A stretch of DNA of 64,000 bases. Origin: Nitrososphaerota archaeon (GTDB lineage: Archaea > Thermoproteota > Nitrososphaeria > Nitrososphaerales > Nitrosopumilaceae). Position 1 is the first letter of the stretch, and every line of letters starts with the position of its first letter. A program made the position numbers and the translations under genes. The DNA is taken from the NCBI GenBank assembly GCA_028867755.1, contig JAGWFT010000001.1, forward strand, positions 324,727 to 388,726, read 5' to 3'. The notes beneath the pieces are model-generated. The model saw only the letters and a program-made list of their open reading frames with translations, was not told the origin of the DNA and did no database searches. Shown in pieces: positions 2,274 through 17,620 of this stretch.

Positions 2274-2696
2274 CTATGAACTCTTTTCACAATTGGTTAC
2301 TCCAATTGCTCCATGAACTCCCATGATGTAATTTACAATAGGAATAGGTTTGATAAATTGAATTGTCTTTTTTGGAAAATTATCTACTGCGATATCAAAT
2401 TTAATATCTCTCAAGGTCTCAGGTACTCCAATTAAAACATCATTCTGTGTTAAAACCTTTGATGAGTTATTTGTTATGTTAGAATCTGATCTTCTTGATC
2501 TAATCTCGCTTACAAGATAAGCGCAATAAGCCAGTAAAGCCTCATGAACATTTAGTCTGAGATTTCTAGATAGCTTATTCTTTATCATTTCTATTACATT
2601 TAAAAAAATTGGTTCATCTTGATCTGAGAATTCAAAAAACTTGGTAAAAGGAGTAACGTCTGGCTCTCCTTTTACCAATACTTGGATACTGATCAA
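2274..2696 (-). CDS. Divergent urease gamma-subunit (UreA)-like protein with N-terminal extension
   Basis: RNLRLNVHEAL...KVLTQNDVLIGVPETL...KPIP aligns by eye with this window's UreA ([11 protein letters not shown]...[16 protein letters not shown]...HDPIV); overlaps the ureohydrolase stop codon by 4 nt. Confidence 0.7.
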   Translation of the reverse strand: MISIQVLVKGEPDVTPFTKFFEFSDQDEPIFLNVIEMIKNKLSRNLRLNVHEALLAYCAYLVSEIRSRRSDSNITNNSSKVLTQNDVLIGVPETLRDIKFDIAVDNFPKKTIQFIKPIPIVNYIMGVHGAIGVTNCEKSS

Positions 2697-3811
2697 TTTC
2701 TTTTTGGAATCTTTGCTTTTGGACCGTTGCCAAAGTCATAGGTGTGGTTTTTGCCACGATATTGCCTTGGTCTTACTGGGCTGCCATTTTGTACACCCTT
2801 CTTTGTAAGAGATAGTCCAGCCAATAGTTCTACTATTAGTCGGTTTGCAAGGCCAGAAGTGATTCCACCGTTATAGGAATTACCGTCACTTACGTCGTAG
2901 TTGGGAGCTACTTCCACTAGATCAAATGCAAACTTGTCGGGGTCAAATGAGGTGGAAAGTAATCTCATCAATCTCATTCCTTCCCTAGATGTCAAGCCGT
3001 TGGGTTCTGGTTCTCCAGTTCCTGGAGCATATGCGGGATCAAATGTGTCTATATCCCAGCTAATGTAAACTGCGTCGACATTATCATTTGCTCTGTCTGC
3101 AGCTTCTTTTGCAATTTGGTCTATACCAAGTTCTTCTACATCAAGCATGGTAAACCATTGAAAGTCTTGGTCTGCCATCCATTTGTAGAGATCTGGGCCT
3201 GGCCAGTATCCACGAGGTCCTATCAAGGTGTAATTCTTACCCTTCAAACAACCTAGTTCCATAATTCGTCGTATGTGTGCCCCGTGATCATACTTGAAAC
3301 CACATAGGCCTTGTGGGGCACAATCAGCGTGAGTATCAATGTGAATCATTCCGATATTCTTGTATTTCTTTGCAAAGGCTCTTACATTTGCAAAGGTAAT
3401 GGAATGATCACCGCCAAGCATGACTGGGATGCCGTCTATGTCTAAAACTTCTTTGACCTTATCAGTCATCCTTCTATGGGATTCGACCACATCGCCTGGC
3501 GAAATGTTAACGTCACCATAATCAATTGTTCTAAATACTCCAAAAGGATCAACTCCTGTTTCAATGTTAAAATGCTCGTATGGTGGAGATGGCACTGTAG
3601 AAGCTGCTCTTATAGCTCTGGGTCCATATCTTGCACCTGGTCTAATAGTCGTTCCAAAATCAAAGGGCTCTCCTATTATTGCTACATCTGGTCGTATCTT
3701 TTCTAACTCTGCCTTGCTTCTTAGCCAGGGCAATTTCAAGAACGTAGGAATACCTACAAAAATTGGTTCGTCATTGCCTCTGTATGAATCTCCATAAAAT
3801 TCCATTCCCAT
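2693..3811 (-). CDS. Ureohydrolase (agmatinase/guanidino-hydrolase family), substrate uncertain
   Basis: GEPFDFGTTIRPGARYGP, GGDHSIT, DTHAD and DIDTFDPAYAPGTGEPEP: complete binuclear metal ligand set of the arginase fold. Confidence 0.9.
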   Translation of the reverse strand: MGMEFYGDSYRGNDEPIFVGIPTFLKLPWLRSKAELEKIRPDVAIIGEPFDFGTTIRPGARYGPRAIRAASTVPSPPYEHFNIETGVDPFGVFRTIDYGDVNISPGDVVESHRRMTDKVKEVLDIDGIPVMLGGDHSITFANVRAFAKKYKNIGMIHIDTHADCAPQGLCGFKYDHGAHIRRIMELGCLKGKNYTLIGPRGYWPGPDLYKWMADQDFQWFTMLDVEELGIDQIAKEAADRANDNVDAVYISWDIDTFDPAYAPGTGEPEPNGLTSREGMRLMRLLSTSFDPDKFAFDLVEVAPNYDVSDGNSYNGGITSGLANRLIVELLAGLSLTKKGVQNGSPVRPRQYRGKNHTYDFGNGPKAKIPKRN

Positions 3812-3855: not shown

Positions 3856-3868
3856 AAGTAATCTACGT
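3856..3868. promoter_or_regulatory. ACGTA-N3-TACGT palindrome (1 mismatch), next to the putative TATA box of the ureohydrolase operon
   Basis: Sequence AAGTA-ATC-TACGT; putative minus-strand TATA TTTAAGTA at 3848-3841. Confidence 0.55.
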
Positions 3869-3877
3869 TTTTAATTT

Positions 3878-3894
3878 AGTTCTACCGTCGAACT
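3878..3894. promoter_or_regulatory. TTCGA-N3-TCGAA palindrome (1 mismatch) upstream of the ureohydrolase operon
   Basis: AGTTCTA-CCG-TCGAACT. Confidence 0.55.
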
Positions 3895-3929
3895 TTTTCC
3901 TGTTTGACTCTTGGATTACAACCATAGCT

Positions 3930-3942
3930 ACGTAATCTACGT
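3930..3942. promoter_or_regulatory. Perfect ACGTA-N3-TACGT palindrome
   Basis: ACGTA-ATC-TACGT in the divergent intergenic region 3812-4036. Confidence 0.6.
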
Positions 3943-4036
3943 GCAATAAACAAGAAACACCACAAGAATCATTTTAACATAATGAAAATTTATATCAAAA
4001 TAAAATTTTAAATATATTAGAATTAATAATAGTTGG

Positions 4037-4177
4037 ATGGCAACTGATTTAACTGAAGTTTATGCAATATTTGCAGCAATTCTTGCTGCCTCGGGATTCT
4101 TCTTGTTCTTGGGAACAATTGGAATAAAAGGAGACAAAAAAGAAGACCAATTGCACAAATCAGAAGAAAATACCTAA
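4037..4177 (+). CDS. 46-aa single-pass membrane protein, not in ORF track
   Basis: Hand translation MATDLTEVYAIFAAILAASGFFLFLGTIGIKGDKKEDQLHKSEENT; one hydrophobic helix and a charged tail; AT-rich TATA-like DNA upstream. Confidence 0.6.
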   Translation: MATDLTEVYAIFAAILAASGFFLFLGTIGIKGDKKEDQLHKSEENT

Positions 4178-4228
4178 AATTTTCTTATACATATACTATT
4201 TTAAACTACATCTGCAAATGATAATGAT

Positions 4229-4750
4229 ATGATATTTCACTGGTTCAAAAAAAATCAACCAGAACTTCCGCCTACTATAGAATACAAGAAAGCTTCTTCT
4301 AAAAAAGAAGCCTCTGAAGATCTAGTAAAAATGGGTGAAGATGCAGCAAACAAAGCCAATTACGAACACGCTTTGAGGTATTTTGAGAAAGCCATAGAGA
4401 TGAACTCAAAAAATGATTTTGCCTGGGGAGACCGTGGGCTCATGCTAGATAAGCTAGGCAAAAGAGATGAGGCAATTGAATCATTTTCCAAGGCATTAGC
4501 GATAGATTCATCCAATGCCATAACTTGGCATAACAAAGGATTGATGCTCATAAAATCAAATAAGCTTGAGGAGGCCATAGAATGTTTTGATAAATCCATT
4601 GAATTAAATGGAAAATATGCAAAAGCGTATTATAACAGAGGCCGTGCCCTGGCCCTCTTAGGAAATGAAAAGGAGGGTCAAAAGAGCTTTGATACTGCAA
4701 AAAGGCTAGATCCTCTGCTATATACCAAACTTAAGAAAATGAAATCGTAA
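4229..4750 (+). CDS. Tetratricopeptide-repeat protein
   Basis: Repeated AW/AY-x-(N/D/H)-(R/K)G...L...A...F.KA TPR units. Confidence 0.9.
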   Translation: MIFHWFKKNQPELPPTIEYKKASSKKEASEDLVKMGEDAANKANYEHALRYFEKAIEMNSKNDFAWGDRGLMLDKLGKRDEAIESFSKALAIDSSNAITWHNKGLMLIKSNKLEEAIECFDKSIELNGKYAKAYYNRGRALALLGNEKEGQKSFDTAKRLDPLLYTKLKKMKS

Positions 4751-4826
4751 ATTTTTTTGGCAATAATAAGCATGCTCTTCAAACATCAAGAAATTTTTAA
4801 ATAAAAACAAATCTAAAAACGCACAA

Positions 4827-5009
4827 TTGTTTGGAAAAAGCTATGGATGTGGTGCATGTGGTATGCGATTCAAATATCGTGATGAGTTGGTCAAGCATGC
4901 ACAAGACATCCATGACAAAAAGACCACATATTTGTGCATCACATGTGATGAATCTTATGAAAACGAGTCATCTTTTATGTTACACATGGCACGCGAACAT
5001 AGAGTTTGA
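4827..5009 (+). CDS. Small C2H2-type zinc-finger protein (2 fingers)
   Basis: CGACGMRF...LVKHAQDIH and CITCDESY...MLHMAREH. Confidence 0.85.
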   Translation: MFGKSYGCGACGMRFKYRDELVKHAQDIHDKKTTYLCITCDESYENESSFMLHMAREHRV

Positions 5010-5103
5010 GCATTTTTTTGTTTTTGAAAGATTGGATTATTTTTGATATCAACACAAAAAATGATTTCACATTAAAAAATTAACCCGTGTTAGAAGCTTC
5101 TCT

Positions 5104-5118
5104 GTTCGACTGTCGAAA
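5104..5118. promoter_or_regulatory. TTCGA-N3-TCGAA palindrome upstream of the SSS transporter
   Basis: GTTCGA-CTG-TCGAAA; putative TATA TTTAATAA at 5139. Confidence 0.6.
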
Positions 5119-5169
5119 TTTAGTGCAATTCCGACATATTTAATAATATATATTTACTAATCATGGGGG

Positions 5170-6759
5170 ATGGGAGACATTCCAATCGCGTATCCTATAG
5201 TGGTGCTCGCATTTGTAGCAGCAACTGCTGCTATTGGAGTTCTCGCAGTAAAATTCGTTAAAAGAAGTAGCAAGCGCTACATTGTGGCAGGCAAAAGCTT
5301 GCCACTATTTTTTATCGGTACAATGCTAGTGTCTGAAGCTGTTGATGGAAATGCTTCGCTTGGAAACGTTTCAGCTACTTTTGGAGGCGGATTCTGGGCA
5401 GGAGCGACCATACCGCTTGGTTTGGCTATTTGTCTTGTCTTAACTGGGGCCTTTTTTGGAAAAAGATTCAATAGAATGTCCATGATCACACTTGCAGATT
5501 TCTACTATAGGCGATATGGAAACACGACCGAAGTAATGTCAGGAACACTCATGGCAGTAAGTTTCATTGTTCTTGTTGCAGGAAACCTGGGTGCAAGTGG
5601 CTACATTTTGTCTGTGTTACTTGGAATACCTTTGATTTATGCAATGTTGATTTCCACTGCTGTAGTATTACTGTATACTTATTTTGGAGGTTTGTTCTCC
5701 TGTGCTTATACCGACATATTTCACATTTATCTTGCAATAATAGGATTTTGGGCCGGCTTTCTCTACTTTATCGGCCCATGGTCGCCAATTCCTGGAGGAC
5801 TAGAGACCATAGTTGCAAATGCACCTGGTAACTTCATGGACATGTCTGGTCTATACGATCTCGGTAATGGCGCGTTACCAAATTGGGCAACTCTAATATC
5901 GCTAGGGGTTGGGGACCTTGTCGCATTAGATTTCATGGAAAGAGTATTTGCAGCAGATGGTGGAAGGACTGCTCAAAAGAGTTGCTATTTTGGAGCAGGC
6001 TTGACGTTGTTATTCATAATCCCTACTACAATGGTAGGAATAATTGGAATGACTTTGGAGCCAAGCCTTACTGATTCCTACACACTCTTTCCAATTGTAG
6101 CAATAAAACATGCACCTATGGTTATAGGCATCTTGATGCTTGTAAGTACAATAAGTTGCGGCATGTCAACTGCAAACGGAGGTACATTAGCTATTGCTAG
6201 TGTACTATCAAGAAACTTTTTGCAACGCAATATCTTAAGGCTAATGAAGAAACAAAAATACAATGATAGGCAGTTGTTACTTGCCACAAGGCTTCTTGTA
6301 ATTCCTATGTTCTTTACCGCTTTTGCCCTAGGCGATCTGATTCCAAGACCTGGCTATTACCTCATACTTGCATTTGATATTGTGTTAGCAGGATGTCTAG
6401 TACCACTAGTTTTTGGAACGTATTGGAAGAAATCTACAGCTTCTGGTGCAGTAGCATGTATCGCAATAGGCACTGGACTGAGAATATTCCTATTCTTCCT
6501 CATCACAATCGCACCAGCTGGTAGCCCCTATCTAGCCTATTCGGGACTTGACACCATTATTCCACCATTGATATCGTTACCAATATTCATACTCGTAAGT
6601 CTGGCAACACAAAAGAAGACACCGCCACGACACGATGTAGTGTATCTCATTCCAAGCGACATGGATGTAGTTACTGGTAGTGATGTGAAAGACTGGGTCA
6701 ATCCAATAGACATGAGAATAGTTGACAGCAAGGGCGGCGCTAAGAGAGATCCGGTATAG
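5170..6759 (+). CDS. Sodium:solute symporter (SSS/SLC5) family transporter
   Basis: About 13 hydrophobic helices; YIVAGKSLP, TLADFYYRRYG, ERVFAA and STANG motifs. Confidence 0.85.
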   Translation: MGDIPIAYPIVVLAFVAATAAIGVLAVKFVKRSSKRYIVAGKSLPLFFIGTMLVSEAVDGNASLGNVSATFGGGFWAGATIPLGLAICLVLTGAFFGKRFNRMSMITLADFYYRRYGNTTEVMSGTLMAVSFIVLVAGNLGASGYILSVLLGIPLIYAMLISTAVVLLYTYFGGLFSCAYTDIFHIYLAIIGFWAGFLYFIGPWSPIPGGLETIVANAPGNFMDMSGLYDLGNGALPNWATLISLGVGDLVALDFMERVFAADGGRTAQKSCYFGAGLTLLFIIPTTMVGIIGMTLEPSLTDSYTLFPIVAIKHAPMVIGILMLVSTISCGMSTANGGTLAIASVLSRNFLQRNILRLMKKQKYNDRQLLLATRLLVIPMFFTAFALGDLIPRPGYYLILAFDIVLAGCLVPLVFGTYWKKSTASGAVACIAIGTGLRIFLFFLITIAPAGSPYLAYSGLDTIIPPLISLPIFILVSLATQKKTPPRHDVVYLIPSDMDVVTGSDVKDWVNPIDMRIVDSKGGAKRDPV

Positions 6760-6802
6760 GGTGTTTGGAAAAATGAAACAAAGGAGGCTAGTAAAGTAAA
6801 AC

Positions 6803-7270
6803 ATGTCAGAAAAAAACAATGTTAAAGTAAACAAAATACTTTTGGCAGTTGACAAATCAGGCTACAAAGACAAGGCAACAGGATATGCTATTACATTGGC
6901 AAAATCTTTGGGCGCTGAAGTTATAGCAATTCATGTAATTGGCAGTTCATCATTGGGTGCAACCAGAGATGTCTTGGGCTATTACAGAGGCGGCAAACTG
7001 AAGGGGTATCAAGATGCGTTAAAGAAAGATGCTGAAAAATTTCTTGATAAAGTAGTGGACGTAGGAGAAAAAGAAGGTGTGACGATAAAGTCAGATGTCA
7101 TAGTAGGATCTCCTGTCAAAAAGGCGATAATAGACTATGCCAAAAAACAAAAAGTAGATCTGATCGTGATTGGATCAAGAGGTATGACCGGCATGGAAAA
7201 ATTTGTTCTGGGAGGAGTAGCTCATGCTGTTGTATCATATGCACATTGCCCTGTACTGGCTGTAAGATAA
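6803..7270 (+). CDS. Universal stress protein (USP)
   Basis: KILLAVD, DLIVIGSRG...LGGVAHAVVSYAHCPVLAVR. Confidence 0.92.
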   Translation: MSEKNNVKVNKILLAVDKSGYKDKATGYAITLAKSLGAEVIAIHVIGSSSLGATRDVLGYYRGGKLKGYQDALKKDAEKFLDKVVDVGEKEGVTIKSDVIVGSPVKKAIIDYAKKQKVDLIVIGSRGMTGMEKFVLGGVAHAVVSYAHCPVLAVR

Positions 7271-7285
7271 CCTGTTGAATGATAA

Positions 7286-7302
7286 AGTTCGATTGTCGAA
7301 CT
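7286..7302. promoter_or_regulatory. Perfect AGTTCGA-TTG-TCGAACT palindrome between convergent genes
   Basis: 7-bp arms with a 3-nt spacer; overlaps the TAG stop of the ParB-like gene. Confidence 0.6.
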
Positions 7303-8050
7303 AATTGAGATGCTTTATCAGGAGATTTTTGACAAAGTCTGTAACTTCTAATCCATTCTGAGATGCTTTTACGTTTAATTGATCCCACATTTTTTTGTCG
7401 AATTTCTTCTTTGGGTTGAAAACAAGACGTACAGTCAAGAGGCCTTTGGGCGCTCCGCGTTTAACCCCAGTTTTTATCATTACTTCTTGGAGTTTTCCAT
7501 CAGATACTGCATTTACTAGCTTTTCTTGAATTGCTTTTGGTTTTCTTGCTATCTGTATTGCCTCATATAGCGTAATTTCCTCACTCTCTATTGCTTGCTG
7601 CAAAGGCTCTGCCAGTGTCAAGATACTCAGCCATTCGCTAACCGTACTCTTTGAGAGTCCATATCTCCTTGATACACCTGTAATACCTGATTCAGTAGAG
7701 TCAACTAACTTTCTTACCATTCTTGCTTTTTCAAGCGGGGGAAGATCCTTCCTTATCAGGTTCTCAAATAATGATGCAGCTTCTGCTTCTGCACCTTCAA
7801 GCTCGGTTACTACTGCAGGTATCTCCCTAGTTCCCTTTGCACTCAGTGAAAGAAATCGTCTACGACCAATCAGTAGTTTGTATCTCTTACTTGCACTATC
7901 AAATCTGACAACTACTGGTTGTAGCAGCTCAAATTTTGACAAATGATCTTTGATAAGTCTGTCTCTGGTATCTTCACCAAAGGGATGATCTTTTCTGACA
8001 TTTTCATCTGCAATATCTATGAGTTTAAGCGGTATGTTCTTGATCTTCAC
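7301..8050 (-). CDS. ParB/Spo0J-family protein (ParB CTPase domain + HTH + RHH-like C-terminus)
   Basis: LLQPVVV, LIGRRRF (GxRR-type Arg patch), ENLIRKDL (ENxxRxxL), HTH GITGVSRRYGLSKSTVSEWL, and a C-terminal strand-helix-helix; no parA in the window. Confidence 0.85.
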   Translation of the reverse strand: MKIKNIPLKLIDIADENVRKDHPFGEDTRDRLIKDHLSKFELLQPVVVRFDSASKRYKLLIGRRRFLSLSAKGTREIPAVVTELEGAEAEAASLFENLIRKDLPPLEKARMVRKLVDSTESGITGVSRRYGLSKSTVSEWLSILTLAEPLQQAIESEEITLYEAIQIARKPKAIQEKLVNAVSDGKLQEVMIKTGVKRGAPKGLLTVRLVFNPKKKFDKKMWDQLNVKASQNGLEVTDFVKNLLIKHLN

Positions 8051-8154
8051 AAATATTTCTTAATTAGTAAATGTATTTATGAATTTCTTTTCTTTTGTTC
8101 TAAATATTTTTTTGTTCAGGCACGATGCAATATTTACAACAAGTTTCAAGTAAA

Positions 8155-8167
8155 ATGTAGATTACGT
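8155..8167. promoter_or_regulatory. ACGTA-N3-TACGT palindrome (1 mismatch) in the parB-like/8227 divergent promoter
   Basis: ATGTA-GAT-TACGT; weaker copy CAGTA-GTT-TACAT at 8188-8200. Confidence 0.55.
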
Positions 8168-8226
8168 ATCATTTTTCGGCTGTGAATCAGTAGTTTACAT
8201 TTTTTACCCCAATCTTTAAATCATTT

Positions 8227-8541
8227 TTGAAGGATCTATCTAAAACTATGGAGAGAGCGAGTATCAGGTTTGACACGAAAACTGAAGAATTTCTGAGCAA
8301 AGCGTCTGTCCTTAGTTATTACATCGCAACATACAATGCCGTAAACGGCGAATTAGGACTTGATAATGAGCCTGTCACAGTAGATGAAATATTTGATTTC
8401 ATAAATGATCTAAAACATGAGGGAGGCGCAACAAACATCCAAAATGTAACAAAAGCAGATATCTCATTAACTTTCAGAATACTGCTAAAAGCAGGGCTAG
8501 GAAGGCAAAATCCTCTCGACCTTGCTTCTCTATCAAATTAG
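8227..8541 (+). CDS. Hypothetical helical protein (possibly winged-helix-like)
   Basis: 104-aa ORF with amphipathic helices VTVDEIFDFINDL and TKADISLTFRILLKAGL; ATG at 8248 is an alternative start. Confidence 0.6.
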   Translation: MKDLSKTMERASIRFDTKTEEFLSKASVLSYYIATYNAVNGELGLDNEPVTVDEIFDFINDLKHEGGATNIQNVTKADISLTFRILLKAGLGRQNPLDLASLSN

Positions 8542-8585
8542 ATAACTGACCTTACATGTTCCAGTTATGGAAAAACCGATAATCG

Positions 8586-9107
8586 CTATAATGTAAGCAT
8601 TTTTTTTGCAGAGTTGATTCTTTCGAGCAAATCTTTAAGGAAGACATCAGCAAAGTGCTCGAATGTTTTTACACCGTGCTTTGTTTCATATTCTTTTTTT
8701 CTTTGGTCATATTCTGACTTGAGCCAGGTAAAGTCTGCTTCTTTTAGATTAATAATATTGTCTCTGGAGACTGCTTTTGATTCAAACATGTTAAGCATGA
8801 AAATACTTGCAAACTTGGTGAAATTGTTTGCTCTGTATTTCTTTTCATATTTTTCCTTCAATATTTTGTAGTTCTCTTCAAACCATTCTTTAACATCGGA
8901 TCTAACTGTTAAGGAAGTGTATCTTCCAGAGAAATCGATTTTAATGTTATGCATTCCTACCGCATAATATTCTCGCTTTATTTCATTCATCATAATTATC
9001 AAAGCGCTAGGAAGAAACATTCCTGGATAATACTCGTCAGTTGCATTTTGCAGTTTAGATATGATGGCAGGCTTTAGCCCTATGGTTGCATACCCTTGAC
9101 TAGGCAT
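8586..9107 (-). CDS. Hypothetical protein with three ribbon-helix-helix-like repeats
   Basis: Three strand-helix units beginning YATIGLKPAIISKL, YTSLTVRSDVKEWF and IINLKEADFTWL. Confidence 0.6.
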   Translation of the reverse strand: MPSQGYATIGLKPAIISKLQNATDEYYPGMFLPSALIIMMNEIKREYYAVGMHNIKIDFSGRYTSLTVRSDVKEWFEENYKILKEKYEKKYRANNFTKFASIFMLNMFESKAVSRDNIINLKEADFTWLKSEYDQRKKEYETKHGVKTFEHFADVFLKDLLERINSAKKMLTL

Positions 9108-9117
9108 GAAAACCGAT

Positions 9118-9130
9118 CGGTAGGTTACGT
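9118..9130. promoter_or_regulatory. ACGTA-N3-TACGT-like site just upstream of the triple-RHH gene
   Basis: CGGTA-GGT-TACGT, about 11 bp from the ATG at 9107. Confidence 0.45.
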
Positions 9131-9234
9131 TAAAAATCTTTAATTAGTATTTAAATAAAATCTGCCTTTTTGGTTTTTGTATATAGAAAATTAAATGACT
9201 AAAAAATAATTAAAAATATTATTTTACAATGGGT

Positions 9235-9489
9235 CTACAAAGGAACCATTGTATCAATCAGTCTTGAATTGGTTATGTTACCGTCTTTCATTTGAATAAC
9301 CAAATCGACTGTATGTTTCAACTTGTTCAACAGAAAAGTCACTTGTACATCCCAAGAGTCTTGAGGACCTTTTTCTGGTAATGGAAAGAGCTCTCTTATC
9401 TTGAAATCCTGGATTTCAGTGCCATAGAGTGCCTCTGTTGCTTTCTTTGAAGCTTTTTCAACGTCGTCACGTGTCTTTACTGGTGACAT
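9235..9489 (-). CDS. Hypothetical 84-aa protein (PepSY-like alpha/beta pattern)
   Basis: Helix followed by beta strands (SWDVQVTF...HTVDLVIQMKDGNI); fold guess only. Confidence 0.6.
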   Translation of the reverse strand: MSPVKTRDDVEKASKKATEALYGTEIQDFKIRELFPLPEKGPQDSWDVQVTFLLNKLKHTVDLVIQMKDGNITNSRLIDTMVPL

Positions 9490-9529
9490 ATTTTATTTTA
9501 TACTTAGTAAATATAAAAATATATTGATT

Positions 9530-9545
9530 TTCGATTGTCGAACTA
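9530..9545. promoter_or_regulatory. TTCGA-TTG-TCGAA palindrome; 16-bp identical to 7288-7303
   Basis: TTCGATTGTCGAACTA overlaps the ureC TAG and lies upstream of 9235..9489. Confidence 0.6.
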
Positions 9546-11255
9546 GAACAGGTGGTATAGTCTGGTCATCGATAGTTTTTTTGACGGTTCAGTTGTAGCC
9601 AACTTTCCATCCACCAAAACTTTGTAGGTTTCAGGGTCGATCTCTATCTTAGGCAACAAATTGTTGTAAAACATATTCTTCTTGCTTATCTTTCGGCAAT
9701 TTTTGACCGGAAGTAATTTCTTTTTTAAACCTAATTTTCTTGATAAGCCATTTTGTATTGCTAGTTTTGAAGTAAAAGTTACCGAGGTAGAATATACTGC
9801 CTTTCCAAATGCGCCAAACATGGGACGATAATATACTGGCTCTGGGGTTGGAATTGATGCATTTGGGTCTCCCATAAGAGAATAGGCAACAAATCCTCCT
9901 TTAATTATGAGTCTGGGCTTTACACCAAAGAATTCAGGTGACCACATCACAATGTCAGCTAATTTACCTACTTCTAAGGAACCAACGTAGCTAGAAATTC
10001 CATGAGTTATTGCTGGGTTGATGGTAAGTTTTGCAAGATATCTTTTGACTCGAATATTGTCATTATCTCCTGTTTCTTCCCCTAGACGACCAGACATCTT
10101 TTTCATTTTGTCAGCAGTTTGCCATGCTCTGATGCCTACCTCTCCAACTCTTCCCATTGCCTGACTATCAGAAGAATACATGCTTAAAGCTCCAATATCA
10201 TGCAGAACATCTTCAGCAGCAATTGTTTCGCCTCTGATCCTAGACTCTGCAAATGCTATGTCCTCTCTTACAGACGGATTTAGGTGATGGCAAACCATCA
10301 TCATGTCAAGATGTTCCTCTAACGTGTTAACCGTAAATGGTCTTGTTGGATTTGTAGAAGAGGGAAGAATATTTTTCTCACCAGCTATTTTCATAATGTC
10401 TGGTGCATGTCCACCGCCGGCTCCTTCTGTGTGATATGTGTGAATTGTTCTTCCGCCTATTGCTCTGATTGTATCGTCAACAAAACCACATTCATTTAAT
10501 GTGTCTGTGTGGATAGCCACTTGAGTATCTGTTTTGTCTGCAACACGCAGAGCAGCATCAATAGTTGCAGGAGTAGAACCCCAATCTTCATGTAATTTCA
10601 AACCGCAAGCTCCCGCAGCAATCTGCTCCATTAGTGCAGGTTCTCTTGAGTCATTTCCTTTTCCAAGTAGCCCAAAATTTAGAGGAAACTCGTCAAGAGA
10701 CTCAAGCATTCTATGGATATTCCATGGGCCAGGTGTACATGTTGTTGCTTTAGTGCCATCAGCAGGCCCCGTACCGCCGCCAATCATAGTTGTGGTGCCA
10801 CTACAGATTGCATCTATTGCCTGTTGAGGTGCAATGAAATGAATGTGTGTATCAATTATTCCAGGAGTGCATATTGTATGCTCTCCTGCAATTACTTCTG
10901 TGTTTGCAGATATTACCATGTCTACATTGTCCATGATATTTGGATTGCCTGCTTTTCCGATACCAGCTATTTTGCCATCTTTGATGCCAATGTCCGCCTT
11001 GATGATACCAAGGACAGGATCCATGATAACGGCATTTGTTATTACTAGGTCAAGTGAATTTCTGCTAATGACACCACTTGCCTGACCCATCCCATCCCTT
11101 GCACTCTTACCTCCGCCAAAAACTATCTCATCCCCATAGGTCTGAAAGTCCTTCTCGATCTCAATTATGAGATCCGTATCGGCAAGTCTAATTTTGTCGC
11201 CCTTGGTAGGACCGTAAAGGTCAACGTATTGCTTTCTGGGAATTATTAGTGTCAT
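9543..11255 (-). CDS. ureC: Urease alpha subunit
   Basis: [13 protein letters not shown] (carbamylated Lys), [33 protein letters not shown]. Confidence 0.98.
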
Positions 11256-11623
11256 TTTTGATCACTGTCCTTGAATCCTAGTTTTTGTGCTTTCTTGATT
11301 GCAATTTGCTTTCTGGTGGCAAGATCTCCATTGACAAGACCACTGAATCCGTATACTCTTTTCAGTCCACTGTACTCTGTAATTTCTACTTCCTTTGTGT
11401 CACCGGGCTCAAACCTCACTGATGTCCCAGCTGGGATATTTAGATGAAAACCATAAGATCTCTTTCTAGAAAATACTAGAGCCTTGTTGGTTTCAAAGAA
11501 ATGCGTGTGAGAACCTACCTGTATTGGCCTGTCTCCAGAATTGCTAACTTTGATCTTTATTGTGTTTCTGCCTTTATTTGCAATAATGGGAACATCATTT
11601 ATGAAATATTCTCCAGGGATCAT
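11252..11623 (-). CDS. ureB: Urease beta subunit
   Basis: [34 protein letters not shown]. Confidence 0.98.
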
Positions 11624-11625
11624 AT

Positions 11626-11943
11626 CTATACGATAGGATCATGAACAGTGACAAGTTTAGTTCCGTCTTCAAATGTTGCCTCAGTCTGCACTGTCTTAAT
11701 CAACTCAGGCACTCCAGGCAAAACATCATCTCTTGCTAAAACTCTCCTTCCTGAACTCATTAGTTCTGATACTGACTTGCCGTCTCTTGCACCCTCAACT
11801 ATGTGGTCTGCAATTAGTGCCAAAGCTTCTACGTAATTAAGCTTCAAACCTCTTGCTTTTCTTCTTCGTGCAACTTCTGCTGTCATAAAAATATAGAGCT
11901 TGTCTATCTCTCTTGGAGTAAGCATCATATCTGTATCTATCAT
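11626..11943 (-). CDS. ureA: Urease gamma subunit
   Basis: MLTPRE...[10 protein letters not shown]...[17 protein letters not shown]; true start probably 11928 or 11925. Confidence 0.98.
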
Positions 11944-17607: not shown

Positions 17608-17620
17608 ACGTAATATACGA
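17608..17620. promoter_or_regulatory. ACGTA-N3-TACGT palindrome (1 mismatch) in the dhs/pdaD divergent promoter
   Basis: ACGTA-ATA-TACGA. Confidence 0.5.

Follow-up and report, generated by a model that had tools for sequence, protein, structure and literature searches.

An orphan ParB-family protein and a locus-specific palindrome in a guanidino/urea gene cluster of ammonia-oxidising archaea: a candidate local regulator

A candidate regulator in a nitrogen-scavenging cluster

The window analysed here, i.e. the whole stretch of 64,000 nt, corresponds to positions 324727-388726 of contig C24 in a Nitrosotalea genome (G000; 1.64 Mb, 38% GC, 99.95% complete). It harbours genes for a ureohydrolase, a transporter of the sodium:solute symporter family (SSS) and urease, and in their midst an orphan gene for a ParB-family protein of 249 aa (7301-8050, minus strand; ParB in the following), which we propose to bind a 15-bp palindrome. 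The palindrome is specific to this locus, its sites are conserved, and it co-occurs with the protein family. ParB is probably a dedicated local transcription regulator of the guanidino/urea scavenging cluster, which acts through this palindrome as its cognate site and does not serve DNA segregation. We consider this the most likely function because a partition partner is lacking, the gene is located in a urea/guanidino cluster, and the palindrome is unique to this place in the genome and follows the protein family.

The palindrome is confined to one locus

A first-pass annotation of this DNA had noticed four copies of the motif TTCGA-N3-TCGAA in the span 3878-9545. This was borne out: three copies are exact (5105-5117, 7288-7300 and 9530-9542) and one has a single mismatch (TTCTACCGTCGAA at 3880-3892), all within 5.7 kb. 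According to shuffled sequences, 0.02 exact matches are expected in the window, and none of 100 shuffles reached three. The true element is longer than first described. Alignment of the copies and their orthologues revealed the consensus GTTCGAC-N-GTCGAAC, a 15-bp palindrome with centres at 3886, 5111, 7294 and 9536.

Site 1 (3879-3893, GTTCTACCGTCGAAC, one arm mismatch) has its centre 75 bp upstream of the ureohydrolase ATG, and site 2 (5104-5118, GTTCGACTGTCGAAA) 59 bp upstream of the SSS ATG. Site 3 (7287-7301, GTTCGATTGTCGAAC) overlaps the TAG stop codon of the ParB gene and is located between the convergent genes for ParB and a universal stress protein (USP). Site 4 (9529-9543, TTTCGATTGTCGAAC) overlaps the TAG stop codon of ureC, 47 bp upstream of the start codon of hyp84, which encodes a protein of 84 aa. 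The earlier placement of three copies upstream of the ureohydrolase, SSS and hyp84 promoters agrees with these distances. These three sites precede TATA-like boxes, picked by eye, by 18-38 bp, and the individual centre-to-TATA distances given in the first-pass annotation (38, 28 and 18-19 bp) were recovered in a second reading by eye. A strict 10-bp helical phasing is not established, since the boxes were chosen in this way and the distance to the SSS ATG differs between lineages (47-68 bp). Sites 3 and 4 share an identical 16-mer in the same orientation (TTCGATTGTCGAACTA; 7288-7303 and 9530-9545), the two copies of which bracket a 2.2-kb module comprising ParB, hyp104 (104 aa), hyp173 (173 aa) and hyp84, and provide ParB and ureC with their TAG stop codons.

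In the rest of the 1.64-Mb genome, no exact copy of TTCGA-N3-TCGAA was found except for one on the 657-bp contig C48. This contig is ~80% identical to window positions ~9006-9710, and therefore its copy is site 4 of a co-assembled strain variant. Thus, the genome-wide scan suggested in the first-pass annotation shows that the motif is specific to the locus and not equally frequent elsewhere. The short contigs C48 and C8 are ~80-88% identical variants of the locus, which indicates that the sample contained another, related strain; of the 112 contigs, 108 are shorter than 2 kb.

ParB has the family fold and Arg at the two canonical catalytic positions

By its sequence and fold, ParB is a member of the ParB/Spo0J superfamily. 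It contains a ParB N-domain (PF02195, E 8.9e-12, 45.3 bits at a cut-off of 26.3), which is the sole ParB_N match in the genome, and a ParB-type helix-turn-helix (HTH) domain (PF17762, E 7.4e-11, residues 101-187), which was aligned to the HTH of Noc and Spo0J. Residues 4-188 align with Noc, Spo0J and ParB at E 2e-17 (phmmer against PDB). The top Foldseek matches of the AlphaFold2 model (pLDDT 76.6) are ParB, Noc and KorB, with ParB/Noc at E 1e-11.

The first-pass annotation had described the CTPase motifs of this protein as intact-looking, which is only partly true. Box II, GRRR(F) at residues 62-65(66), and box III, ENLIRKDL at residues 96-103 of the translation, conform to GxRR and ENxxR, and G62, R64, R65, E96, N97, R100 and D102 are invariant in 23 aligned orthologues. 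The same holds for K134, S135, T136, S138, E139, W140 and S142 of the recognition helix. However, in the alignment to Noc the positions of the canonical Gln (box I, NPxQPR) and Glu (GERR) are occupied by R19 and R63, and they are kept as Arg or Lys in the orthologues. Work on Caulobacter and Myxococcus reportedly assigns the catalysis of CTP hydrolysis in canonical ParB to this box I Gln and the GERR Glu. The nucleotide specificity of the ParB N-domain fold is not predictable from sequence or by AlphaFold3 (PMC12704722).

The HTH and a ribbon-helix-helix (RHH)-like C-terminus, both noted before, were found again. The C-terminal 60 residues consist of the signature KRGAPKGLLTVRLVF followed by two helices, and T206 and R208 are conserved in the putative strand. 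Their profile matches the RHH proteins AvtR (6e-4), Arc (6e-3), HP0222, 56B and ORF56. In the monomer model they form an extended segment and two helices (pLDDT >90 in the helices, 83 when folded alone), and the Foldseek matches are almost exclusively RHH folds (NikA, Arc, CopG), with poor E-values of >0.7. A predicted complex of two copies of these 60 residues scored 0.35 (mark 0.42) and was not used as evidence.

In line with the first-pass annotation, no parA gene was found beside ParB. Its neighbours encode USP and hyp104, and the sole AAA_31/ParA-like match in the genome is ~830 kb away. Further, the LG(R/K)GL motif for ParA binding is absent from the N-terminus (VKIKNIPLKLID...). By these sequence features ParB would fall outside the canonical, CTP-hydrolysing and ParA-coupled class; it represents an undescribed archaeal branch of the ParB family.

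Protein and palindrome are conserved together

A ParB orthologue with 89-92% identity is present in five of the 34 other genomes of the genus (G007, G012, G016, G017 and G019), that is in 6/35 including G000. All six carry the palindrome beside ParB at syntenic positions (no conclusion rests on the G017 locus, which is flagged as unpublished), and an orthologous locus that keeps ParB and lacks the motif, named as counter-evidence in the first-pass annotation, was not seen among them. Among the remaining genomes of the genus, only G001 has the motif of the locus. There the contig stops after ureC, site 4 and the start of hyp84, so that the module is cut off and ParB was not assembled. A single GTTCGA-N3-TCGAA match with a different spacer was detected in G010. 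Isolated matches to this pattern in G040, G051 and others were treated as chance, since their frequency equals that of a reversed-pattern control.

Across the syntenic Nitrosotalea loci, all four sites are found at the same positions, mostly with their individual deviations preserved. In the loci examined, site 1 is nearly always TTCTAC.GTCGAA, with a G to T deviation, and site 4 nearly always has the degenerate form of the window, which is also found on contig C48. Exceptions are a perfect site 1 (L052), a one-mismatch site 3 (G012) and the lack of site 4 at ≤1 mismatch in G007:C43.

A search for related loci yielded 67 loci from Nitrosotalea, Nitrososphaera, Nitrosocosmicus, other Nitrososphaeraceae and one Thaumarchaeota metagenome-assembled genome (G050). 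The identity of ParB to the window protein is 83-92% in Nitrosotalea, 65-73% in Nitrososphaeraceae (Nitrososphaera, Nitrosocosmicus and others) and 56% in G050. Where the contigs extend far enough, ParB and the ureohydrolase gene are linked in nearly all of these loci, and the other partners of ParB on such contigs are a urease-gamma-like protein, SSS, hyp104, hyp173, hyp84, USP and a tetratricopeptide repeat (TPR) protein. In Nitrosocosmicus, hyp173 is located just 3' of SSS.

The centres of the promoter-proximal sites lie 47-79 bp upstream of start codons and 5' of AT-rich TATA-like boxes, a position kept across genera. The distance to the ureohydrolase ATG is 73-79 bp in all three genera (93 bp in one locus). 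The most widely kept position is that of site 2, whose centre precedes the SSS ATG by 47-68 bp in most lineages; the distance is larger where SSS and ureohydrolase share a divergent promoter region. In L055, L059, L065 and G050, a palindrome is centred 65-71 bp upstream of ParB. Downstream of the ParB stop codon, a palindrome is found at 7 bp in Nitrosotalea, at 23-24 bp in L055, L059, L060 and L065, and also in L152 (centre at 34 bp) and L154 (starting 4 bp past the stop). A site also exists 230-235 bp upstream of the ureohydrolase gene in L055, L059, L060 and L065. In a Nitrososphaera subclade, the site at the ureohydrolase position reads GTTCGGC-N-GCCGAAC, a symmetric double change by which the dyad is kept.

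Five other genomes were scanned completely for the 15-mer at ≤1 mismatch. Nitrososphaera viennensis EN76, Nitrososphaera FF02 and G050 contain exactly one copy each, always beside ParB. In N. viennensis it is at the position upstream of SSS, equivalent to site 2 (1264446-1264460 of CP007536; ParB is NVIE_014900). No copy was found in G012 and in one Nitrosocosmicus genome, because their sites carry two or three mismatches. Taken together with the distant family members described below, the co-occurrence of palindrome and ParB homologue expected from the first-pass annotation extends across three genera of ammonia-oxidising archaea (AOA) and beyond.

Which protein goes with the palindrome

Besides ParB, the locus encodes further candidate DNA binders, namely hyp173, hyp104 and a C2H2 zinc-finger protein, which the first-pass annotation had overlooked, as it had the second motif described next. 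In the orthologous loci, ParB, hyp104, hyp173, the palindrome and a second palindrome, motif B (ACGTA-N3-TACGT, ACGTAGATTACGT), are always found together. Because they travel together so constantly, these loci cannot discriminate between the candidates; evidence that can do so comes from the f4 genomes, from G050 and from distant family members.

In two genomes of the group f4 (G037 and G054), an 80%-identical ureohydrolase is accompanied by SSS, the TPR protein, the zinc-finger protein, hyp84 and ureABC. The ParB-like gene in f4 is a different paralogue (GNRR in box II, ~325 aa), and the palindrome, motif B, hyp104 and hyp173 were all not found in the two genomes. Thus, the occurrence of the palindrome is not simply explained by that of the enzymes, the transporter, hyp84, the TPR protein or the zinc-finger protein. 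The zinc-finger protein was rejected as binder, since it is present in f4 without the palindrome and was not detected in most palindrome-bearing loci of Nitrososphaera and Nitrosocosmicus. By the same f4 argument hyp84, which is present in f4 loci lacking the palindrome, as well as the TPR protein and USP were rejected.

Conversely, the palindrome is retained where ParB has other neighbours. In G050 (77% complete) ParB is surrounded by housekeeping genes (L21e, KsgA, DUF655). A perfect palindrome is located 65 bp upstream of it, with a TATA-like box ~29 bp downstream of the centre, and hyp104 and hyp173 were not found in this genome with the window proteins as queries. An exhaustive profile search revealed distant proteins with the same three-part architecture that are 24-43% identical to the window ParB, and none of the locus genes of the window was found on their contigs by tblastn or profile HMM. 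Five of these proteins, 29-36% identical to the window protein, have the palindrome nearby: 76 bp upstream of the gene for P0129 (L151, GTTCAACTGTCGAAC), 81 bp upstream for P0136 (L158, GTTCGGTAATCGAAC), 131 bp upstream for P0145 (L159, GTTCGACTGTCGAAC), centred 34 bp past the stop for P0130 (L152, GTTCCATAATGGAAC) and, for P0137 (L153), in two copies (GTTCGTTCAACGAAC and GTTCGTCAGGCGAAC) in a divergent intergenic region at a distance of 1.6-1.8 kb. Altogether, a GTTC...GAAC palindrome of the 7-N-7 type with ≤1 arm mismatch is present in 6/9 contigs (35 kb in all, that of G050 included), whereas 0.05 contigs are expected from shuffles. The same pattern has seven matches on the whole 1.24-Mb contig C24, two of which are sites 1 and 3. 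The protein P0127 has the recognition helix PLGTINDW instead of PKSTxSEW, and on its contig palindromes of the type TTACGC...GCGTAA were found instead, one of them starting 4 bp past the stop codon. It is mainly on this basis, namely that the site follows the protein family and changes with the recognition helix, that we assign the palindrome to ParB.

Several points weigh against this assignment and the function proposed from it. The putative pairing of ParB and palindrome is drawn from co-occurrence only, and hyp104 and hyp173 accompany both in all orthologous loci. Their exclusion depends on one genome of 77% completeness and on short metagenomic contigs, and 3/9 distant contigs lack a GTTC...GAAC palindrome. 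In Nitrososphaera, it is mainly motif B and not the palindrome that is found on the flanks of the ParB gene, so that ParB or its RHH domain could read motif B also or instead. Site 3 lies between convergent genes and has no obvious target for an ordinary operator. Finally, a canonical CTPase cycle is doubtful, since Gln and Glu are replaced by Arg and residues 24-43 of the N-domain have low model confidence.

It is unlikely, though worth weighing, that hyp173 or hyp104 binds the palindrome and that ParB reads motif B or acts otherwise. Apart from the constant company just mentioned, this would be in line with the two copies of motif B between ParB and hyp104, with the proximity of hyp173 to RHH families in the Atlas (leads only), and with the position of hyp173 directly 3' of the palindrome-bearing SSS gene in Nitrososphaeraceae, which is a classic autoregulatory layout. 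However, the pair of ParB and palindrome persists in G050 and on the distant contigs without detectable hyp173 or hyp104, and the palindrome differs where the recognition helix of ParB differs (P0127). In addition, the level of hyp173 in N. viennensis is far above that of SSS (see below), which argues that it is not simply co-transcribed from the promoter with the palindrome.

Proposed function of ParB

As a local regulator, ParB would act as a dimer, held together by the RHH-like domain, which reads the palindrome through its two HTH motifs. The geometry of the site resembles that of parS or of the KorB operator, and the predicted target DNA for the window protein or for NVIE_014900 is GTTCGACNGTCGAAC. 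Binding just 5' of the TATA-like boxes of the ureohydrolase operon, SSS and hyp84 would result in local control of transcription. The region upstream of the TFB recognition element (BRE) and the TATA box is the usual place of archaeal activators. Sites in this region could also serve as loading sites for a sliding clamp. The sites 3' of ParB and those 230-235 bp upstream of the ureohydrolase gene suggest some long-range action, or else a function linked to the ParB gene as such. Direct binding of ParB to the palindrome, the sign of regulation and any nucleotide-gated clamp or sliding step are inferred.

Published expression data for ammonium-grown N. viennensis, given in two columns (PMC7785015 supplement), bear on the sign. 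ParB (NVIE_014900) has values of 7.1/7.6, the ureohydrolase gene (NVIE_014910) 5.4/5.6 and hyp173 (NVIE_014870) 7.4/7.0, and SSS (NVIE_014880), which is preceded by the single site, is far below its locus neighbours with 2.9/2.7. The level of hyp173, well above that of SSS upstream of it, points to an own promoter of hyp173. Low SSS expression at the time when ParB is expressed fits repression of the transporter by ParB when no inducer is present, but this is only a correlation. Repression of SSS under growth with ammonium is the better guess.

The first-pass annotation had suggested an archaeal ParB clamp repurposed to regulate nitrogen genes. The regulatory part of this idea is in agreement with the locus-specific, promoter-proximal sites; the intact catalytic residues, however, did not stand up. 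A modified version can be proposed tentatively, and it is rather doubtful in its entirety: ParB may be an archaeal chromosomal nucleotide switch with an Arg-for-Gln/Glu pocket, which loads at the genome-unique, parS-like palindrome and slides or bridges on TBP/TFB promoters, with the HTH reading the palindrome and the RHH domain the adjacent motif B, and which thereby controls how a guanidino compound and urea are taken up and hydrolysed in AOA. If true, ParB-type regulation of transcription would for the first time extend beyond bacteria and their mobile elements.

Two other explanations do not involve gene regulation by ParB. That the locus is a residual partition or chromosome-organisation system of the parS type, present in the nitrogen island by chance and without a role in expression, is quite improbable. 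The domain architecture and a palindrome of the 16-bp class do resemble ParB-parS; in bacteria a site near or overlapping the parB gene is common, and in the distant family members no linkage to nitrogen genes is seen. On the other hand, parA is not nearby, the N-terminus lacks the LG(R/K)GL motif, and each of three or four different genes has a promoter-proximal site at a fixed distance. The presence of the orthologue in only 6/35 genomes of the genus shows that it is dispensable, and archaeal HTH-ParBs in general seldom occur with ParA and probably have no part in segregation (PMC12704722).

Very improbable, finally, are hairpins (terminators or stabilisers of mRNA 3' ends) or recombination junctions of a mobile 2.2-kb ParB module: the bracketing 16-mer that supplies two stop codons would suit a recombination scar (a reading of low probability), site 3 is flagged in a scan for terminator-like structures, ureC and site 4 are followed by another ParB-like module in G007:C136, and the symmetric GTTCGGC/GCCGAAC variant keeps base pairing too, but the hairpin energies are only -2.5 to -6.5 kcal/mol and in two of four cases no better than those of shuffles, the conserved mismatches in sites 1 and 4 disrupt the stem, the distance of sites 1 and 2, which precede TATA-like boxes, to the start codons is fixed across genera, and the single copy in Nitrososphaeraceae loci brackets nothing.

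Other genes and elements of the locus

The gene calls of the first-pass annotation were confirmed by Pfam matches (ParB_N and HTH_ParB, arginase family, SSS, ureC). The ureohydrolase of the arginase family (2693-3811, minus strand; PF00491, 3.2e-79) forms the putative target operon together with a small urease-gamma-like protein (2274-2696, minus strand; PF00547, 1.7e-8), the gene of which overlaps the ureohydrolase stop codon and is syntenic in relatives. It is followed by the genes for the TPR protein (4229-4750) and the C2H2 protein with two zinc fingers (4827-5009), by SSS (5170-6759, plus strand; PF00474, 1.2e-21), a further putative target with the site kept upstream, and by USP (6803-7270, plus strand; PF00582, 8.1e-30), which is located 3' of SSS and convergent with ParB. 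The module is flanked by ureC (9543-11255, minus strand), ureB (11252-11623) and ureA (11626-11943).

Within the module, hyp104 (8227-8541, plus strand), to which neither function nor fold was assigned, is divergent from ParB and always adjoins the ParB orthologue. The 104-aa ORFs of G050 (upstream of ParB) and L154 were considered as its homologues, and neither tblastn nor profile HMM supported this. The protein hyp173 (8586-9107, minus strand), an alternative or additional DNA binder and a candidate for motif B, consists of three RHH-like units, i.e. tandem strand-helix-helix repeats; its nearest named Atlas clusters are NikA-like, RHH_3 and ParG and are taken as leads only. A 415-aa ORF (L153:1127-2374, minus strand) beside two GTTCG...CGAAC palindromes matches the hyp173 profile weakly, in three stretches (E 0.065). 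The function of hyp84 (9235-9489, minus strand), the putative target of site 4, is unassigned. For hyp104, hyp173, hyp84 and the C-terminal domain of ParB, no Pfam match at E≤5 was obtained.

Motif B has 18 matches with ≤1 mismatch in the genome, four of them within the island. In the window it is found at 3856-3868 (AAGTAATCTACGT), abutting the TATA-like box of the ureohydrolase gene, at 3930-3942 (ACGTAATCTACGT), at 8155-8167 in the divergent ParB/hyp104 intergenic region and at 17608-17620; further copies are at L150:10760 and L150:10803. Motif B abuts the ureohydrolase TATA-like box in most loci, with two copies in the ParB/hyp104 intergenic region. Candidates for its binder are hyp173, hyp104 and the RHH domain of ParB.

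In urea loci of AOA a second ParB-like family was observed (box II GHRRF or GNRRL, 287-325 aa), for example at L150:3710-4573 (minus strand, with 3145-3684 on the plus strand), L039:871-1740 (with 1834-2373) and L141:4566-5540. In N. viennensis and G007:C136, its members are paired with a 179-aa protein that shows a weak match to an AsnC-type HTH. They adjoin ureC and site 4 in G007:C136 and the ureohydrolase gene in f4 genomes, where they contain an 18-bp palindrome (TTATGCGCCGGCGCATAA) inside their own coding sequence.

Between Nitrosotalea and the Nitrososphaera and Nitrosocosmicus loci (L043-L109), the ureohydrolase is 88-97% identical. Its neighbours are much more diverged (ParB 65-73%, SSS ~50-78%, hyp173 ~61-72%). 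This reflects either an extreme constraint or a recent transfer of this single gene. In G012:C1 (L031:11914-12160), site 4 and hyp84 are kept, and of ureC only a C-terminal fragment of 83 residues is left in a stretch of ~20 kb, so that the urease genes look deleted beside the retained palindrome.

Significance and comparison with known systems

The locus is of interest for several reasons. To our knowledge, gene-regulating CTP switches of the ParB type are described only from bacterial plasmids, integrative and conjugative elements (ICEs) and Noc. According to a survey from 2025, HTH-ParBs are scattered in archaea and their function is not known (PMC12704722); with this locus, a specific function open to testing and a defined DNA site can be proposed for them. 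Since an orthologue with a single site exists in the cultured N. viennensis EN76, binding, nucleotide dependence and regulon are directly testable. Further, the ureohydrolase, which is so highly conserved across AOA lineages of two GTDB families, forms with SSS and urease an apparently regulated set that may enable soil ammonia oxidisers to use a guanidino compound. Clustering of SSS with an 'agmatinase' was noted in one Nitrososphaera clade (PMC11131427), and genes for guanidine degradation were not found in AOA by Palatinszky et al. 2024 (PMC11410670). Our literature searches revealed no description of this ParB, of its palindrome or of a link to the ureohydrolase/SSS cluster of AOA.

Canonical ParB/Spo0J and Noc are the best sequence and fold matches over residues 4-188, and they share GxRR in box II, ENLxRxDL in box III, the HTH and a palindrome near the gene. 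In contrast to them, the window protein has neither a ParA partner nor a ParA-binding motif or membrane-targeting helix; it is patchily distributed, its one to four sites all lie in a single locus, and its C-terminus is RHH-like. With the archaeal ParB/AspA/ParA system of pNOB8 and with SegAB it shares the ParB N-domain fold (weak Foldseek matches to 5k5d and 5k5a, identity 13%), but in these a separate adaptor protein, AspA or SegB, recognises the specific site and is accompanied by an ATPase, and neither adaptor nor ATPase was detected at the window locus. The C-terminal 60 residues match the profiles and folds of RHH regulators such as Arc, CopG, AvtR and ParG; unlike in these, a ParB N-domain and an HTH precede the RHH-like unit in the same chain.

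The closest parallels to the proposed mechanism are KorB, VirB and BisD, three transcription-regulating CTP clamps of the ParB-like type that are encoded on bacterial mobile elements (PMC12704722). Two of them, VirB (Shigella) and BisD (Pseudomonas ICE), are orphan clamps without a segregation role that activate transcription, and they load at a specific palindrome-like site upstream of their target promoters, in which they resemble the arrangement of the window sites. They differ by being bacterial and located on virulence plasmids or ICEs, and VirB acts in anti-silencing of H-NS, whereas for the window locus no comparable silencer is known, the promoters are of the archaeal TBP/TFB type and the C-terminal domain is another one. 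KorB, the CTP-dependent sliding clamp and repressor of the IncP-1 plasmid RK2, is a weak relative in sequence and structure, with a ParB N-domain and an HTH like the window protein. Its operator OB, TTTAGC-S-GCTAAA, is built as 6+1+6 and the palindrome described here as 7+1+7, both being of odd length with a central base, and KorB likewise has several operators, near to and distant from the promoters of one gene set. However, KorB is bacterial and plasmid-borne, has the ParA partner IncC, the co-repressor KorA and an SH3-like C-terminal domain, whereas the window protein is archaeal and chromosomal, belongs to a metabolic cluster, ends in an RHH-like domain and carries Arg where the catalytic Gln/Glu would be.

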